DNA from: an uncultured Gemmatimonadales bacterium
Lineage (GTDB): Bacteria > Gemmatimonadota > Gemmatimonadetes > Longimicrobiales > Gaopeijiaceae
Length of the DNA: 64,000 nucleotides
Assembly (NCBI GenBank): GCA_963809895.1
Contig: CAWELD010000003.1
Span: 544,001 to 608,000 of the forward strand
Reading direction: 5' to 3'
Positions 24,001-36,000 of the stretch are shown one piece after another (within the stretch, counting starts at the first letter, position 1; every line of letters begins with the position of its first letter). Position numbers: made by a program.

Positions 24001-27000
24001 ACGACGCGAGGTGGCGAGTCCGGGCTCTCGGGGGCATGGTCGCGGGTGCTCGGCTCTCCGCGGCACGCGGCCAGGAACGCGAGCCCCGCCGCGAAGAAGG
24101 CGGCCCGGCGCGCCCGTGTCGTGGTCACGAGCCGTCGGGTGCGCGCCACAGGCGGCCGGTCAGGAGCACGAGGGCCAATCCCAGGGCGGCGAAGAGCAGC
24201 GCCAGCACCGGAATGGCCCGACGGGCTCGGCGGATGCCGCCCACCGGCGCCGGCCCCGGCACCGTGCGCAGTGACCAGACCGACCAACGTGTCACGCCCG
24301 AGTCTCTGCGGAAGCCCAGGATCCGGTCGGGTCGCAGGAAGCCCACGAGCAGGACGTCCGTATCGGTCTGCGCCAGTCTGCGACCCAGCGTATCGAGCAG
24401 CTCCACCCTGGACGCCCAGGCGCGTTCGGGATCCGAGACGGCGTAGGTCGGGCCTCCGGGCGCCGCGGAGGGAACGGGCGTGAGAGCGCGGGCCCAGTCG
24501 GGGCCTGCCCTTCGCACGAGGGTCACGAGATTGCCTTCGTCGTCCGAGGTGATGTCCAACATCTCCGGTGGTGCCGGGTGGTCGGGAGCCGGCGGTGGGG
24601 TCTGCGTTCGGGGTGGGAACCAGTCCGTCTCCACGACCAACGAGTCCACCAGCGTGCCGGAGGCGTCGATACGGTCGATGTGGTAGGCCGTGGGCATGAT
24701 CGCCCAGGCGCCCCCTCGCGGGTCCGTGGTGAGCCGTCGCTGAAGGAGGTAGACGCCCCGCCAGTCCAGGGGCTGTGCCGGCCCCGAGGAGCCCTGCGCG
24801 ACGCCGTCGGGCGAGAGGAGGTGAAAGGGCCTCGCCTCCTGTTCGCCGCTCCCTTCGGCGCGGCCCGAGGTCAGCCAATCGCCCCGCTCCAGGCGAATCG
24901 CGTCCTGCACCTGGAGAGGAAGGGGCGTGCGCCGCACCACCCCACCGTCGATGTCCAGCACCACCAGCGCCGGGCGAGCGGCGTCGAAGGCGAAGATGGA
25001 ATCCCCCGTCACCAGCAGGGAGCCGATGGAGTCCAGCGTCGTCGGTCCTCCCAGCCGTCGGAGGAAGCGCCCACCGGGCGAGAAGACCGCGATCCACCCG
25101 GGCGCGCCCTCGGACACGGCATAGAGCCGTCCCTCGGTGTCCATGGCCCAGGCCCGCGGCGCACCCAGGGCACCGGGTCCGTCCCGGTCCCCGAACGATC
25201 CCGCCTCCTCGAGCTCGAGGTGACACGGCGGGCAGATCGCCTGGGCGCCGGAACCCGGCGCAAGAAGCAGGAACAGGCCGAGGAGTGGAGTCATGGCCGG
25301 CCGAATTTCGTCTCGATCTCCACGCCGCAGTCGCGCAGGAACCGCGTCGGCAGCTCTCCGCCGATGAAGACGAACACCTGGCTCGCCGGAACCTGGATTG
25401 CCTGGCGATCCCGGTCGAGGACCACCTCGCCCGGGCGGATCTCCGTCGGCGTCGTTCCCAGGAGAGCTTCCACGGACCCTCGCGAGATCGCCTCCTCCAC
25501 GCGCTCGTGGTTTCGCGGCTTGATGCGGCTGAACGCCTCACGTCGATACGAGATACGGACCTCGTTGCCCGGCTGTTCCGAGAGTGCCAGCGCGGCTTCC
25601 ACCGCGGAGTCGCCGCCGCCCACCACGAGAATGCGATCGGTGGCGTACGCTTCCGGCTCCCGGAGCGAATACGCCACGTGGGGAGCGTCTTCGCCAGGGA
25701 CACCGAGCTTGCGGGGCACCCCTCGCCGCCCGATGGCCAGCACCACCCTGCGGGACTCGTAGATGCCCCGGTCGGTGATCACCCGGAAGTGGAGATCGCC
25801 GACACGATCCACCGACTGCACCGTCTCGCGTGTGTGAACATCGAGGTCGCCTTGCGTGGCGATGTCCTCCCACAGCTCGATGAGCTCCTCCTTGGAGATC
25901 TCGCGCAACGGCAGCTTGCCGTAGCCCGGGACCTGCACCGGGCGCGTCATCACCAGCTTCTTCCGGGGATAATGGCGCACCGTACCCCCGAGATCCTCCT
26001 TTTCCAGGGTAACGGCGGTCAGTCCCCGATGCCGGGCGGTGAGCGACGCCGAGAGGCCGGCGGGACCGCATCCGACGATCAGCAGGTCGAGCAGGTCGCC
26101 GGCAGTGGTGCCACGCCCCTCTTTCAGAATGCCCTCGATGCACTGCCGGCCCTGCTCGAAGGCGTTGGCCACCAGTCCCATGCCGCCGAGCTCTCCCACG
26201 ACGTAGAGCCCGCGCACGTTGGTCTCGAAGTTCTCCTTGACCCGGGGCAGGTCCACGCCTCGCGTCTCGGTTCCGAACACGAGCTGAATGGCGTCCATGG
26301 GGCAGGAGCGCTCACAGAGGCCGTGGCCGATGCACCGCGCCGGAGCCACGGCCACGCCCTGGCCGGCGCGGAGGCCGAGCACCTCCTCGGGGCAGACGCT
26401 CACGCAGTTCGCGATCCCGATGCAGCGCTCGGGGTCGACCACCGGATGCAACGAGACGGGCTCGTGGAGACCGTATTTCAGAGCCTCCACCTCCGCGTCG
26501 TCGGTCTGGCGCTCCTTGCGGCGCATGCGGATCAGGACCGGGAGCGTCACGAGGGCGGTGAGCGCCGACCCGATGCCCCAGACGATGAGCATGTCCCGGT
26601 CCATCAGAACGTCCTCGACAGCGAGAGGCTCAGGTATTGGCCACGCAGGCCGCCGCCCCATTGGCTCCTCAGCCGAGCGGACAACCGGAGACCCGTCGCC
26701 AACGGTGCGTCGGCGCTGAGCTCGCCCGCGTGCGTCGTGGACACGTAGGTCGGGTAGTCCGCCCGATAGAAGCGGTACCCCAGGCGCATGCGGGCTCTGC
26801 CCAGGCCGAAGAGCAGCGCCGGCGCCGCCGAGATCACGCGTCCATCCTCGTTGCTCCAGAACGAGGCGGAGCCCGCGAATCCCAGGCCCGAGCCCCGCGG
26901 GGGTGCGGACAGCGAAGTCGTGGACCCCCAGGACGTGCGCCCGTCTTCCTGCCGGGAGGCGGACGCGTCGAGTCCCAGGTATGCGCCTCCGAGCCTGAAT

Positions 27001-33000: not shown

Positions 33001-36000
33001 CCGGCTCCCAGGAGGCGAGCCACCGCTTCCGGCGACACGTCGGTCGTGGCGCGGATCTCGGCGGCGAGCGCGCCGGTCCGAGCCTCCACGGCGTCCTGGC
33101 CCAGGAAGCGGCCGTTCACCGTCTTGGGAATGCGCACGTACACGTACCGTCCGAAGATCCCGCTGGCCACGACCACGGCCATGCTCCAGAACGCCACCGA
33201 GACCAATCCCCCGAACTTGAACGTGGTGTGCAGGAGCACGAAGAAGGGGCCCAGCGTGCACAGGAAGATGTGGACCTGCAGCCAGTAGCGGAGGCCGCCG
33301 AGCCGCTCGAGGAAGGCAGCGCGCTTGCGCATGGAGTAGCCGATCACGCCCACGACGATCATGGTGGTGCCAACGATGCCGAGGCCGTGTCCCACGAGCC
33401 CGGTGGGCGAGAACATGGGGGCGAGCTCCGAATAGGCGCGCTGGTCCAGAGGCAGGACGTAGTAGTCCAGTCCCCAGACGAGGGCGGAGCCGGCGGCCCC
33501 GAGCCAGACGACCAGGAGGATGAAGGCGAGCACCGGGTTCCTGTCAGGGGGAGGCGGGGTGACGGACGGACCGGCATGCAAGGAGCGGACCGCACGAGGA
33601 CGCATGAAAAAAAGACCCGACGCACCATGCGCCGGGCCGTAGAACGGAGCGTTGGCTCCGCCCTACCTGGCAGCTGGGCGATCCACGAGGTGGTGGACCC
33701 CTGGCTTTGCGTCCCGCCGTTGCCGACGGTTTGCCCTTAGCAGGTTGCTTCAAACTTATGCAAATGCCACAAAACGGGTCAACGAATTCGTGTGGGCCCC
33801 GGTGCGTGGGGCGATTCGCGCACGACGGCGGACCGCGGTAGCTTCGCAGCGCCGGACCGGAGCGACGGGTTCGGGGCACCTACGACCACCCTCTCGGAGG
33901 ACCACATGATCAGCAGGCGAGGCTTCATCGGTGCGTCCGCCACCGTGGCGGCCGGAGCAATGGCGGGATCGGGGAACGATCTCCTGGCCGCGGAGCCCCA
34001 GGAGCTACCACCGTCCATCGCGCGCTTGCGCTCGCAGCGGGATAAGGCCCACCCCATCACGGTCGCCGAGCGTGAAGCTCGCATCGAGCGTGCTCGCAGC
34101 CTCATGCGGGATGTCGGCCTCGATGCGCTCATGCTGACCGGTGGCACCTCCATGACCTACTTCACCAACGTGCAGTGGGGTCTCAGCGAGCGATTGTTCG
34201 CCGTGGTGGTCCCGGTGCGAGGTGAGGCCTTCGTGGTCACTCCGGCCTTCGAAGAGGGGCGCACGCGGGAGCAACTCGAGACCGGTCCACTGGGGTCGGC
34301 CGAGGTGTTGACGTGGCAAGAGGACGAGAGCCCCTACGAACGTGTGGCCCAGGGCCTGCGTGCTCGAAGCATCGCTTCCGGCCGGATCGGCATGGAGGAG
34401 ACCGTGCGCTTCGTCTTCGCCGATGGTGTCGCGCAGGCGGCCCCATCGCTGGAGGTGGTGAGCGGGACGCCGGTCACCGCCGGGTGCCGCGGACGGAAGG
34501 ACGAGCACGAGTTGGCGCTGATGCGGCTGGCTTCGGAGGTCACGCTGACGGCCTACAAGGCCGCGTACGAGGCGTTGGAAGAAGGGATGACCCAGGACGA
34601 CTTCGCGCGCCTGGTGAGCCTCGCCCACGAGCGGCAGGGCTTCTCGGGGGGAGCCGGCGTTCAGGTCGGGCAGTTCTCGGCGTTGCCCCACGGCTCCGTC
34701 ACGCCGCAGGTCGTGCGCCAGGGGACGATCCTGCTCATGGACGGGGGCTGTGGGGTCGAGGGATACCGCTCCGACCTGAGCCGGACCTTCGTCATGGGCG
34801 CGCCCACCGACAAGATGCGCACGGTGTTCGAGATCGAGCATCGGGCCCAGAAGGCCGCGTTGGACCAGGCCCGGCCCGGCGTCGAGGCGCAATCGGTGGA
34901 CGCGGCCGCCCGCAAGGTCATCGAGGACGCCGGCTACGGTCCGGGGTACAAGTACTTCACGCATCGAGTGGGGCACGGGATCGGTATGGACGGCCACGAA
35001 TGGCCGTATCTCGTGAAGGGGAACACCATGCTTCTGCAGCCCGGAATGACATTCAGCGACGAGCCCGGGATCTACATTCCCGGAGAGTTCGGGGTCCGGC
35101 TCGAGGACGACATGGTCATCACCGATTCGGGAGCCCAGTTGCTGACGCCCCAGAGCCCATCTCTGGAGGATCCGTTCGGGAACTGGCCTTCGTAGGGCCC
35201 CCCGACCGGACCCCGGACCCGGGCCGCCGCGAACACGTCATGCTTGACGATCCTGCTCGCGCTCGGGAGGTTCAAGCACGCGCAATGACCCTGCGGGGGG
35301 CCCGGTGATGGACGGGTCGCCCGGGAGGCCTCGCCTTTCTCGCCCGGAGCCCATGTCCTCCTCGACCCCTCCACACCCGATCGCAGTCGGCGCGTCGAGA
35401 TCAGCGCTGGGTCTCGTCATGGCCGCCGTCGGCGTGCTCCTGACCGGGTCCCTGTCGGCGCAGGAGTTGCCGCTGCGCCGCGAGATCCCGAGGCAGGGGA
35501 AGGCCGTCTGCGAAGGGCGCCCCCCGACCCGCACGCCCACCGACGAGGAGCGGGCCCAGGCCGAACAGCTCGGGTCCAGCGCATCGCAGGCCGTGATCCT
35601 GGGGGATAACGAGCGGGCGCGGGACCTGCTCGCCCGGGCGGTACAGCTCAACCCGACCTCCACGGCGCTGACCTACCAGTACGCGCGCATCCTGGAAGAC
35701 CTGGGTGAGTCCGATGCGGCCCAGCGTCAATACTGTCTGGTGCTCGCCCTGGCTTCGGATTCCCCCGAAGCGACCGATGCTCAGGGCCGCCTCGACGCCC
35801 TGACCGCTCGTGCGGGGGCCATGCTGCCCACCACCGCCGTCGCGCGCTTCCGGGACGGCGTGGCCGCGGCCGAAGCGGGTCGTCTGGACGAGGCGGCCGC
35901 GGCGTTCGCCGGCGCCGCGTCTCTCGCGCCGGAGTGGCCCGACGCGGCATACAACCAGGGCGCCGCCCTGGCCCGGCTCGGCCGTCGGCGAGAAGCCATC

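Follow-up and report, generated by a model that had tools for sequence, protein, structure and literature searches.

A GEMM-I riboswitch at the head of a predicted envelope-spanning multihaem cytochrome operon in a Gemmatimonadales bacterium

A riboswitch of cyclic-dinucleotide type stands in front of a row of cytochrome genes in this uncultured bacterium, and the locus raises the question of what is controlled, by which ligand, and in which direction. The window analyzed was the whole 64,000-nucleotide stretch of contig CAWELD010000003.1 from 544,001 to 608,000; positions are counted from its first nucleotide. On the minus strand, a GEMM-I aptamer (33744-33665) is followed by an intrinsic terminator and then by eight translationally coupled genes, neighboring genes being spaced between a 2-nt gap and a 4-nt overlap. 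Our preferred reading, held at a probability of about 0.6, is that the operon encodes a PCC3-like electron conduit through the whole cell envelope, governed by a c-di-GMP GEMM-I riboswitch that acts via the terminator. The haem “wire” would probably move electrons from inside the cell outward. The initial annotation had described a cyclic-dinucleotide riboswitch heading a cytochrome operon; the terminator, the tight coupling, the large multihaem cytochromes and an outer-membrane barrel all accord with this description, but the cGAMP-type logic attached to it is not supported. The leader comprises the following features:

33665..33744, minus strand: aptamer of the GEMM-I (c-di-GMP-I) class, from RF03167, RF01051, covariation and the pocket columns
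33639..33664, minus strand: hairpin separating the aptamer from the terminator, from minimum-energy folds of the leaders of the window and its relatives
33607..33638, minus strand: intrinsic terminator, a stem-loop (33638-33614) plus seven T

The full-length match (1-80) to Rfam RF03167 was reproduced at 33744-33665 on the minus strand with 62.4 bits (gathering 59), and RF01051 scored 61.8 bits at the same site; by score, the aptamer fits the c-di-GMP-I and “GGC” variant models equally. The earlier caution that the “GGC” assignment is soft was justified, in that a column with a consensus G in RF03167 is A in this aptamer. In an alignment of 15 related aptamers, double-sided changes were found at 11 of 22 pairs and 93% of the cells were paired; none of 500 shuffles reached the observed covariation values. 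The pocket columns in the window are G, A and C, and the columns equivalent to G20, A47 and C92 of Vc2 read G/A/C in all 11 aptamers that head the operon. The roles of Vc2 G20 and C92 in the pocket are described in the available portion of PMC6140456, which attributes the cGAMP specificity of the Geobacter aptamers to an A at Vc2 position 20. Judged by its sequence, G/A/C matches the canonical pocket for c-di-GMP, as distinct from that for cGAMP. Given the G at the equivalent of Vc2 position 20, c-di-GMP is the expected ligand.

The previously noted terminator hairpin with its T-run was recovered by a terminator scan as 11 pairs (8 G-C) at 33638-33614 followed by T7, with an energy of -19.0 kcal/mol; the ATG of gene 1 (33605) lies immediately past T7. 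The structure of the spacer hairpin upstream is conserved, whereas its sequence is not. A hairpin with a U-run was present in 8 of the 12 leaders examined (7 of 11 operon leaders, plus a near-identical paralogue at another site of the genome), and the scan found no U-run in the other 4 of 11 operon leaders. As a candidate antiterminator, the aptamer 5' strand can pair with the terminator 5' strand and loop, and in transcripts cut before the terminator 3' strand, the aptamer 5' strand folded onto the terminator 5' strand. The same two-helix duplex was obtained in seven of the eight leaders with a terminator. The numbers of shuffles at least as stable as the duplex, out of 300 per leader (n=8), were 0, 2, 4, 6, 17, 24, 45 and 174. 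The candidate is weak in three of these eight leaders, including the window's own (45/300 shuffles as good, z -1.05), and it fails outright in leader L029 (174/300 as stable).

Aptamer and terminator share no nucleotides and coexist in the full-length minimum-energy fold; because they form there together, the call on the direction of control relies on kinetic reasoning. The lack of overlap and the conserved alternative pairing of the 5' strand point to ligand-induced termination. The design of the leader therefore argues for an OFF switch, opposite to the cGAMP ON switches of Geobacter. With ligand absent, the aptamer 5' strand would be engaged by the terminator 5' strand and loop, allowing read-through; with c-di-GMP bound, the aptamer would retain its 5' strand, the terminator would fold, and the operon would be off.

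Two alternatives bear on this part of the reading. That the ligand is cGAMP or another dinucleotide is improbable: cGAMP sensors fall within this RNA class too, there are natural members that accept both ligands (PMC6140456, in the part available), and the top-scoring Rfam model is the variant one, but the equivalent of Vc2 G20 is G rather than A in 11 of 11 operon aptamers, and the column with G in the variant consensus carries A in the window. A more serious contender, although still unlikely, is an ON switch, by which high c-di-GMP during life on surfaces would cause read-through and turn the conduit on. The GEMM-Ib elements ahead of Geobacter cytochrome genes are ON switches according to the accessible text of PMC6456294, cytochrome conduits are often tied to attached growth, and the antiterminator score of the window's own leader is not significant. 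Against it, a bound aptamer could not block a terminator with which it shares no nucleotides and forms together, and the only conserved alternative pairing uses the aptamer 5' strand. The layout is also nearer to the OFF switch Cd1 than to the ON switch pilM, though the Cd1 antiterminator uses the aptamer 3' strand (PMC9262584, from the part seen).

The OFF reading can be placed among known switches. The suggested parallel with the GEMM-Ib riboswitches of Geobacter (cGAMP; pgcA, omcAHG, omcST) was borne out: as far as the text of PMC6456294 was available, they share aptamer fold and class with the present element, are terminator-based, and precede multihaem cytochromes of extracellular electron transfer, as here. 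They differ in the pocket (A in the cGAMP sensors, G here), in the sign of control (ON there, predicted OFF here) and in phylum, which is Gemmatimonadota here; in addition, the unit controlled here is a whole envelope-spanning cluster including inner-membrane and cytoplasmic parts. Cd1 of Clostridioides difficile, a transcriptional OFF switch, combines a c-di-GMP-I aptamer with a separate terminator, and its ligand favors termination; its antiterminator is built from the aptamer 3' strand (both from the portion of PMC9262584 at hand), whereas the candidate here draws on the 5' strand. Cd1 controls flagellar genes.

Downstream of the leader, the following features were assigned:

32682..33605, minus strand: gene 1, inner-membrane protein of 307 aa, of the “IMP” type of PCC3/PCC4 and predicted to bind two b haems
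32083..32679, minus strand: gene 2, TPR protein whose N-terminus bears a membrane helix (Pfam TPR_17, TPR_19 and TPR_2 over their cut-offs)
30627..32086, minus strand: gene 3, 17-haem cytochrome c, in three frames in the assembly with junctions near 31427 and 30880
28205..30624, minus strand: gene 4, cytochrome c of ~805 codons with 30 CxxCH motifs (31 with a damaged motif)
28445..29876, minus strand: tandem array of 222/231-nt units with three haem sites per unit (TRF)
28949..29172, minus strand: broken junction unit at which the 74-aa and 77-aa types meet (three-frame reading and unit alignment)
26604..28205, minus strand: gene 5, beta-barrel of the outer membrane, with a small beta domain at its N-terminus
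25291..26604, minus strand: gene 6, membrane-anchored flavoprotein with ferredoxin-like Fe-S and FAD/NAD(P)-binding domains
24125..25294, minus strand: possible gene 7, for a protein of 389 aa that has a signal peptide, a single CxxCH and a membrane helix at its C-terminus

The gene row given earlier required amendment at its head: directly behind the riboswitch lies the gene for a previously unnamed 307-aa membrane protein (33605-32682), and the TPR gene comes second. Gene 1 occurs once in the genome, and its product has no family match in Pfam or NCBIfam. It contains two W-x3-H-x13-H motifs and S148-G149-x-x-G152, and all of the motifs named for PCC3/PCC4 proteins in the available part of PMC5566968 were found in it. 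Residues H112, H126, H277, H280 and H294 are invariant among 40 gene-1 sequences. The AlphaFold model (pLDDT 86) features five long helices, and two b-type haems are predicted to sit between helices 3 and 5. Foldseek returned no match at E <= 0.001, and VIA-align gave Z values of 7-10, the noise level for helical bundles, with no clear structural relative.

Gene 2 starts 2 nt past the gene 1 stop; its product scored 29.3 bits against TPR_CcmH_CycH, under the cut-off of 42. The TTG start of gene 3 overlaps the TPR gene stop. The “7- and 5-haem cytochromes” reported for this region are fragments of this one 17-haem gene, with 7+6+4 CxxCH motifs over three frames; the orthologue in the relative G003 (533 aa, 17 CxxCH) aligns with 32029-31430, 31419-30886 and 30878-30630, each in a different frame.

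For gene 4, whose product consists mostly of c7-like three-haem units, the earlier counts of 19 CxxCH in one frame (from 30726 down) and 11 in another (to the stop at 28205) were reproduced. The length of ~880 codons had to be shortened to ~805 from the likely start at 30624, and the Pfam match to Cytochrome_C7, formerly placed below or at threshold, is above it: the model scored 73.6 bits on the first part against a cut-off of 24.8, and 40.3 bits on the second. The intact G003 orthologue has 896 aa and 34 CxxCH. TRF again reported a period of 222 (6.4 copies, 89% matches, 28445-29876) and one of 444. Of the six 74-aa repeats claimed, three are 74-aa units; of the rest, one is broken and two have 77 aa each. 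Unit A2 is separated from A3 by 1/222 nt, A1 from A2 by 17/222, and B1 from B2 by 13/231. A PDB sequence search with this cytochrome yielded no match at E <= 0.01.

The start of gene 5 overlaps the gene 4 stop by 1 nt. Its product begins with a signal-peptide-like stretch and has F as its last residue; the AlphaFold model (pLDDT 85) shows 23 strand elements in residues 159-544, and the top Foldseek matches are outer-membrane barrels. The gene 6 product matches Pfam Pyr_redox_3 (150.7 bits) as well as Fer4 families, and basic residues come after the hydrophobic helix at its N-terminus. The ATG of gene 7 overlaps the flavoprotein stop and GC3 in its frame is 0.84; the relatives' loci yielded no homologue, and there was no Pfam family match. 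From inside to outside, electrons would pass from the cytoplasmic, membrane-anchored Fe-S flavoprotein with its FAD/NAD(P)-binding domain to the five-helix inner-membrane protein and its two predicted b-type haems, then to the periplasmic 17-haem cytochrome, the ~30-haem cytochrome of c7-like three-haem repeats, and finally the large outer-membrane barrel. The TPR protein may aid cytochrome maturation or assembly.

The reading frames of both cytochrome genes are interrupted. In gene 4, the single frame change described before is in fact two, both within the unit 29172-28949: frame A gives way to a third frame for ~22 codons and then to frame B. In this unit, one CxxCH lacks a Cys, and about four indels separate it from neighboring units. 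The two cytochrome genes together have four frame changes within 4.2 kb, a density far above that elsewhere in the genome, for which three candidate frameshifts were counted in ~76 kb of conserved coding sequence (~1 per 25 kb). At 31427, one base is absent from contigs of runs X2 and X3, which otherwise differ by 3-4 letters in 359-434. Across 30805-31023, an X4 contig aligns with a single gap and a single mismatch; the alignment of a mismatch-free X3 contig ends at 30883. One contig from run X1, the run with the largest share of words, carries a 3-nt deletion (31431-31434) that would not restore the frame. Assembly error, the explanation offered originally, is the likelier reading, although it could be checked against other data at only two of the four breaks, both in the 17-haem gene. 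One base is missing at or near each of those junctions in near-identical contigs of other metagenomes, which makes indel errors of the assembly the likelier cause there; such errors are also the probable cause of the two breaks in the repeat.

The module is conserved across Gemmatimonadota, Rhodothermales, Bacteroidota and Ignavibacteriales, with the same genes in the same order in six of six relatives' loci. Frames with at least 4 CxxCH occurred in 63/64 loci having at least 3 kb downstream of the gene-1 homologue; in such loci, the first cytochrome frame typically has 17-23 CxxCH and the second 10-70. Among complete loci, those extending 8 kb or more past gene 1, 51/51 have a flavoprotein homologue and 38/51 a barrel. 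The riboswitch was found in 10 of the 78 usable loci, all from Gemmatimonadota; the operon stands without it in 68 of the 78 and in four of the six close relatives.

It is rather unlikely that the breaks are real, both cytochrome genes being pseudogenes in this strain and the riboswitch heading a decaying operon. Such decay would accord with the clustering of the breaks (four in 4.2 kb of cytochrome genes, none in the remaining ~4.4 kb of the operon, three in ~76 kb elsewhere), with the X1 deletion, which leaves the stop behind the first fragment in place, and with the single copy of gene 1. Yet a base is absent at or near both checkable junctions in near-identical contigs of three other runs, the pieces are all open between breaks with the CxxCH and distal His pattern kept, and the riboswitch, gene 1, barrel and flavoprotein are intact; moreover, the broken unit marks the very border between the two unit types, where consensus building is prone to error. 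Electron uptake, from Fe(II) or Mn(II) oxidation or a cathode into the quinone pool via the inner-membrane protein, with another role for the flavoprotein, is a possibility of lesser standing. Uptake is the model proposed for PCC3 in iron oxidisers in the available parts of PMC5566968 and PMC10734462, and the record of one related locus (L056) is marked as a manganese-related Gemmatimonadetes bin. Against this, the flavoprotein is present in 51/51 complete loci and directly beside gene 1 in 12 loci; its constancy and this adjacency suggest that the partner is a cytoplasmic pyridine nucleotide and not quinone alone.

Parts of the proposed conduit can be compared with other known systems. In multi-domain c7-type cytochromes of Geobacter, such as the dodecahaem GSU1996, three-haem c7-like domains form chains; Cytochrome_C7 likewise matches several stretches here, although the units are many more, some of them near-identical in DNA. 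In Hmc and Tmc of sulfate reducers, a membrane cytochrome b connects a multihaem cytochrome in the periplasm with an Fe-S protein in the cytoplasm; the membrane subunit here is of another family, and an outer-membrane barrel is present. NCBIfam HmcA matches weakly, with 34.7 and 23.6 bits against a cut-off of 400, and family membership is rejected.

The kind of cluster was already known: it fits the PCC3 type described in 2017 (He et al., PMC5566968). In the available text of that study and of a Gallionellaceae survey (PMC10734462), PCC3 combines a porin with a multihaem cytochrome of ~17-27 haems, a second multihaem cytochrome with repeats, a highly variable haem number and ~26 aa per haem, and an inner-membrane protein of ~300 aa that has SGxxG on the fourth of its five helices and the WX3HX13H motif twice, all as here. 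This likeness is drawn from the described features of genes and motifs. PCC3 is known, from the same portions of these sources, in Alpha-, Beta- and Gammaproteobacteria. Here, by comparison, the inner-membrane gene leads the row, the cluster also includes a TPR protein and a membrane-anchored Fe-S flavoprotein, and part of the Gemmatimonadota have the riboswitch. Riboswitch class and gene-cluster type have thus both been described before; new are the occurrence in this phylum, the sign of control predicted here, and a flavoprotein as constant partner.

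Features of the riboswitch-headed operon (window coordinates)
33744-33665, minus: GEMM-I aptamer
ca. 33664-33639, minus: hairpin between aptamer and terminator
33638-33614, minus: terminator hairpin (11 pairs, 3-nt loop, then T7)
33605, minus: ATG of gene 1, right after the terminator
33605-32682, minus: gene 1, membrane protein of 307 aa
32679-32083, minus: gene 2, TPR protein with a membrane helix
32086-30627, minus: gene 3, cytochrome c with 17 CxxCH
30624-28205, minus: gene 4, cytochrome c with 30 CxxCH
28205-26604, minus: gene 5, outer-membrane barrel
26604-25291, minus: gene 6, ferredoxin-domain flavoprotein
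25294-24125, minus: gene 7 (possible), signal peptide, one CxxCH near the N-terminus, C-terminal membrane helix; its ATG overlaps the gene 6 stop; GC3 0.84

The genes are separated by gaps of no more than 2 nt or overlap by 1-4 nt, and because of this spacing the operon is very likely one transcription unit. A promoter scan of 25000-34500 found none. The operon is flanked upstream by a divergent M24 peptidase/prolidase gene (33792-35195, plus) and downstream by an inosine-uridine nucleoside hydrolase gene (23070-24000, minus). For the possible gene 7 (24125-25294), neither a Pfam family nor a homologue in the loci of relatives was found. Two longer frames were rejected as genes. An 1811-codon ORF (25291-30726, minus) proved to be the first frame of gene 4, open through the barrel gene into the flavoprotein frame; such mechanical ORFs show that length misleads in DNA of 69% G+C. 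The ORF at 32083-33261 was not accepted at full length, the TPR gene being its last 198 codons only.

Gene 1 was matched to no Pfam or NCBIfam family, and the Protein Atlas returned clusters of “hypothetical protein” only. Forty homologues from four phylum-level groups were compared. H112, H126, H277, H280 and H294 are invariant among them, as are the Ser and Gly residues of S148-G149-x-x-G152. W108 and W276 are common to the 40 sequences and each lies 4 residues ahead of the first His of a pair, giving two WX3HX13H motifs (W108/H112/H126 and W276/H280/H294). The AlphaFold model (pLDDT 86) has five long helices (24-49, 70-95, 105-126, 133-158 and 243-304), with the His pairs on helices 3 and 5. 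A Foldseek search of the PDB returned nothing at E ≤ 0.001, and a PDB search with the gene-1 profile gave a chance row only (E 0.98). The matches from a wide VIA-align search were middling helical bundles and were discounted as evidence (for example an ABC-transporter domain, Z 10.5; the designed two-haem bundle 7ah0, Z 7.9; E. coli CybB, 5oc0, Z 7.6; STEAP1, Z 7.5; cytochrome b561, Z 7.4).

He et al. 2017 (PMC5566968) describe the inner-membrane protein of the porin-cytochrome cluster types PCC3 and PCC4 as roughly 300 aa long with five helices, of which helix 4 carries SGxxG and helices 3 and 5 each carry WX3HX13H; they proposed two b-type haems for it. Gene 1 fits this description exactly in length, helices and motifs. 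The parts of PCC3 are given there as a porin, an “extracellular” multihaem cytochrome (median 34 haems), a periplasmic one (median 21) and the inner-membrane protein, the cytochromes being rich in repeats, at a median of 26 residues for each haem. The PCC3 cytochromes of Gallionellaceae have 21-27 and 10-35 haems (PMC10734462). All parts of the PCC3 definition, including an inner-membrane protein of the described kind, are found in the window operon. It thus fits a PCC3-type cluster by gene content and described motifs. The cluster type itself is already known as PCC3, with a predicted function.

The model of gene 5 (pLDDT 85) comprises 23 strand elements, which would correspond to a barrel of about 22-24 strands, and a small beta domain at the N-terminus. 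Its best 50 Foldseek rows were ushers (FimD, PapC), Occ porins, BtuB and AlgE, with no Mtr entry among them; the TM-scores were just 0.2-0.46, and the barrel is therefore placed in no specific solved family.

The tandem part of gene 4 consists of three 74-aa units (A1-A3), a broken unit and two 77-aa units (B1 and B2), in that order. Three CxxCH and a further three His (in FDH or VDH, G-A/S-H and GEH) occur in every unit, a set with which each unit could bind three haems by bis-His ligation, as cytochrome c7 does. The gene has about 26 residues per haem and no lipoprotein Cys after the signal peptide. Cytochrome_C7 (PF14522) scored 73.6 and 40.3 bits on parts of gene 4 against a cut-off of 24.8, which places it in the family; on the 34-haem orthologue of a same-genus relative with intact genes (G003) the score was 126.6 bits in 12 stretches. 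On the intact orthologues of G003, the DmsE/MtrA family TIGR03508 reached 48.3 and 22.8 bits with the cut-off at 192.2, a result that does not assign them to the Mtr type. A PDB sequence search with the cytochrome gave no match at E ≤ 0.01. Units A2 and A3 are identical but for 1 of their 222 nt, reflecting either a very recent duplication or homogenised copies, and the assembled number of repeat copies therefore needs care. The second cytochrome of the module has 70, 49, 46 and 39 CxxCH, in single open frames, in loci from a Bacteroidota (L079), a Saprospiraceae (L075), a Rhodothermales (L060) and a Gemmatimonadales (L025) bin, respectively.

Both cytochrome genes are interrupted in the assembly. 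The “7- and 5-haem cytochromes” of the initial annotation are not separate genes; they are pieces of gene 3, since the 17-haem G003 orthologue (533 aa) aligns to three successive frames (32029-31430, 31419-30886 and 30878-30630). These pieces carry 7 + 6 + 4 = 17 CxxCH, the same number as in relatives. The 34-haem G003 cytochrome (896 aa) aligns to two frames of gene 4 (30642-29092 and 29023-28208). The gap between these reads in the third frame and resembles the neighbouring units, minus one haem-site Cys; the repeat unit at 29172-28949 has about four small indels relative to its neighbours. From its likely GTG at 30624 to the stop, gene 4 measures 2417 nt, i.e. 805 codons plus 2 nt, a surplus that fits two extra bases.

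Contigs of four public metagenome runs (X1-X4; three from wetland, one from salt marsh) were aligned to 26600-33800. At the first junction of gene 3, an X2 contig (434 nt, 4 mismatches) and an X3 contig (359 nt, 3 mismatches) are without one base at 31427, a deletion that, read by hand, joins the two frames; both contigs also have G>C at 31430. An X1 contig has three bases fewer at 31431-31434, with which the stop would stay in place. Several alleles, or else errors, thus fall within the 8 nt of 31427-31434. At the second junction, an X4 contig covers 30805-31023 with one gap and one mismatch, and the alignment of a mismatch-free X3 contig ends at 30883. The broken repeat unit is spanned by no usable contig row; among the rows listed, whose placement is confused by the repeats, no indel was present at 29010-29250, which weighs neither for nor against the break.

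A frameshift census was carried out by aligning 314 long frames from the loci of ten relatives to the window's own genome (G000), about 86 kb being covered. Outside the operon, a relative's protein continues in another frame at C10:~388090, C3:~2449870 and C3:~2968800; these three sites are candidate assembly indels in conserved genes, so indels do occur in this assembly. Five sites were flagged in the cytochrome genes and reduce to about three places, the two repeat shifts showing as one. The indel density is about 4 in 4.2 kb in the cytochrome genes vs. about 1 in 25 kb elsewhere. Such an excess must have something local behind it: consensus building may have been poor in the repetitive cytochrome DNA, or the genes may really be decaying. 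We regard an assembly artefact as the probable cause of the frame breaks. They carry a caution, in that long-read bins can split large, repeat-rich cytochrome genes into false genes, and haem counts in surveys are distorted as a result.

The flavoprotein encoded by gene 6 opens with a hydrophobic helix and then a stretch of basic residues, an arrangement that should leave the bulk of the protein facing the cytoplasm. Residues 61-102 hold two non-standard ferredoxin motifs, invariant in 39 sequences, with C61, C67, C71, C91, H94, C97 and C101 (six Cys and one His) as the invariant ligands of the ferredoxin-like domain. The second Cys is replaced by a non-Cys residue in one motif and by a His in the other. 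Going by motif rules, the domain appears to hold two clusters, a three-Cys one and one that has a His ligand. The remainder is a thioredoxin-reductase/YpdA-like FAD- and NAD(P)-binding domain (Pyr_redox_3, 150.7 bits); every NCBIfam match was far below its cut-off.

A scan with one genome per species identified 213 relatives of gene 1. By their record titles, the best 80 of the 213 loci came from Gemmatimonadota, Rhodothermales, Bacteroidota (Saprospiraceae, Prolixibacteraceae and Bacteroidales), Ignavibacteriales and a few other bins. Within Gemmatimonadota, gene 1 was found in 63 of 301 sampled genomes and 32 of 127 genera. Cytochrome frames were present in 63 of the 64 loci that extend 3 kb or more downstream, the first mostly with 17-23 CxxCH and the second with 10 to 70. 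Where at least 8 kb was available downstream, the flavoprotein was present in 51 of 51 loci and the barrel, detected with the window's protein, in 38. Gene 1 and the flavoprotein gene are no more than 150 nt apart in 12 loci, and almost all of these are from outside Gemmatimonadota. A complex prediction for gene 1 and the flavoprotein gave a score of 0.16 (mark 0.32). The flavoprotein is a constant part of the module and, in other phyla, a neighbour of gene 1; both facts suggest that it and the b haems exchange electrons on the cytoplasmic side. Outward electron transfer is the easier reading if NAD(P)H is the donor. Accounts of PCC3 assume a quinone-coupled protein and, in the available text of PMC5566968 and PMC10734462, give PCC3 no flavoprotein partner; among these clusters only PCC4 subgroup II has an Fe-S gene (PMC5566968, available text).

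The sole Rfam family in the whole window is the c-di-GMP-I clan, with a full-length match at the aptamer. RF03167 (c-di-GMP-I-GGC) scored 62.4 bits against a gathering threshold of 59; in a whole-genome search RF01051 scored 61.8 bits against a threshold of 35, over model positions 1-87, at the identical site. RF03167 is thus ahead by just 0.6 bits, a tie of two models. We assume that “GGC” names three pocket positions of a variant class; no definition of “c-di-GMP-I-GGC” was found in literature using the term. The RF03167 consensus (...ACGC-G-AA...) has G at the middle pocket position and the window has A, which sets its aptamer apart from the GGC variant. With the tie and this A, the label reads as the outcome of scoring, not as a description of the window's pocket.

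A covariance model (R1) was built from seven aptamers of the window's lineage and used to align 15 aptamers. Standard pairs filled 93% of the pair cells, and double-sided changes occurred in 11 of 22 pairs. Fitting the alignment to the model favours the structure; the signal is still far above the controls, in which 0 of 500 shuffles equalled the observed covariation and slid partners paired in 19-50% of cells vs. 93%. Pocket columns were placed by their helix neighbours, with Vc2 (the Vibrio reference aptamer) for numbering: the G20 equivalent is the nucleotide 5' of an invariant G-C/C-G pair, the A47 equivalent the nucleotide 3' of it, and the C92 equivalent the second unpaired nucleotide ahead of the P1 3' strand. 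The A47 equivalent is counted here, on our assumption, as a ligand-pocket position. In the window, as in each of the ten related operon aptamers, these positions are G, A and C. In Vc2, G20 recognises one of the two guanines of c-di-GMP and C92 forms a pair with the second, and in cGAMP sensors A replaces G20 (PMC6140456). At position 20, where GEMM-Ib (cGAMP) has its defining A, the window and every operon aptamer have G, and c-di-GMP is the expected ligand of the window aptamer, as predicted from these pocket positions.

The genome (5.33 Mb, 11 contigs, 69% G+C) holds four further GEMM-I elements by RF01051 search, and cytochrome genes follow the window's element only. An aptamer at C10:830290-830377 (minus; L003:1500-1587) has A at the Vc2 G20 equivalent and is a candidate cGAMP-type (GEMM-Ib-like) sensor; the genes after it are non-cytochrome. 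Among the 78 loci with more than 300 nt upstream, a riboswitch was found by R1 100-200 nt ahead of gene 1 in ten, by record title all Gemmatimonadota; with its seven lineage-specific training aptamers, R1 may miss divergent GEMM-I elsewhere among the 80 loci. No riboswitch was found in four of six close relatives with the operon (Rfam at E ≤ 1 on four loci), and seven loci of other phyla gave no riboswitch, only tmRNA, at the Rfam gathering threshold. Control by the riboswitch is thus specific to a lineage and was added to an older module.

Sites with a hairpin and U-run numbered 2 region-wide vs. 1.8 expected from shuffling. Terminator-like sites are therefore no commoner than by chance, and position, not count, gives the window's terminator its meaning. 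Of 12 leaders examined, 8 carry a hairpin followed by a U-run, namely 7 of the 11 operon leaders and that of the near-identical paralogue at C3:2404384; the terminator scan found no U-run in the other four operon leaders. In the window, aptamer and terminator have zero nucleotides in common and are both present in the minimum-energy fold of the full leader, so a bound aptamer could hinder a competing structure only, not the terminator. When the last 22 nt were removed, the aptamer 5' strand (the P1 strand and conserved GGGC) paired with the 5' strand and loop of the terminator. This two-helix duplex was seen in 7 of 8 terminator-bearing leaders. The numbers of shuffles (of 300, terminator segment) giving a duplex at least as stable were 0, 2, 4, 6, 17, 24, 45 (window) and 174. 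We read the duplex as a putative antiterminator, and the balance leans towards an OFF switch, in which ligand lowers read-through. The paralogue (C3:2404384-2404463, minus; L001) shares this terminator and the candidate antiterminator pairing with the window, and 6 of 300 shuffles matched or bettered its duplex; the genes after it are without CxxCH motifs. As described in PMC9262584, the antiterminator of Cd1 is built from the aptamer 3' strand, and pilM is an ON switch. The window's layout is closer to Cd1 than to pilM, although its candidate antiterminator uses the 5' strand. Cyclic-dinucleotide riboswitches ahead of extracellular cytochrome genes are established in Geobacter, where they sense cGAMP and turn transcription on (PMC6456294); for the window's element, in contrast, c-di-GMP is expected and an OFF response is predicted.

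To one further reading we assign roughly one chance in four. The PCC3-type conduit of Gemmatimonadota and their Bacteroidota-Ignavibacteria-Rhodothermales relatives would not be quinone-coupled, but a self-contained chain: a membrane-anchored NAD(P)H Fe-S flavoprotein would pass electrons to the di-haem b membrane protein, and from there they would travel through the haem wire to the porin. It would be a bacterial counterpart of NADPH-oxidase-type transmembrane electron export, by which reducing power from the cytoplasm is vented to acceptors outside the cell. In one lineage of Gemmatimonadota this chain would have come under negative c-di-GMP control, such that it runs in the free-living, low-c-di-GMP state.

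In the literature searched, no PCC3-type cluster was found described in Gemmatimonadota or the relatives, where the supplementary tables of PMC5566968 could list non-proteobacterial hosts; nor was a fixed flavoprotein partner of such a cluster, or a riboswitch ahead of one, found. The papers found on multihaem cytochromes and extracellular electron transfer in Gemmatimonadota contained no description of the window's cluster.

PCC3-type clusters are widespread, and their function rests on prediction. The always-present flavoprotein suggests a source or destination for the electrons. The locus also offers a regulatory handle on PCC3: a riboswitch for a second messenger, open to in vitro tests of both ligand and sign. 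Control of electron-transfer cytochromes by dinucleotide riboswitches appears to reach beyond the Geobacter lineage, possibly with the opposite sign.
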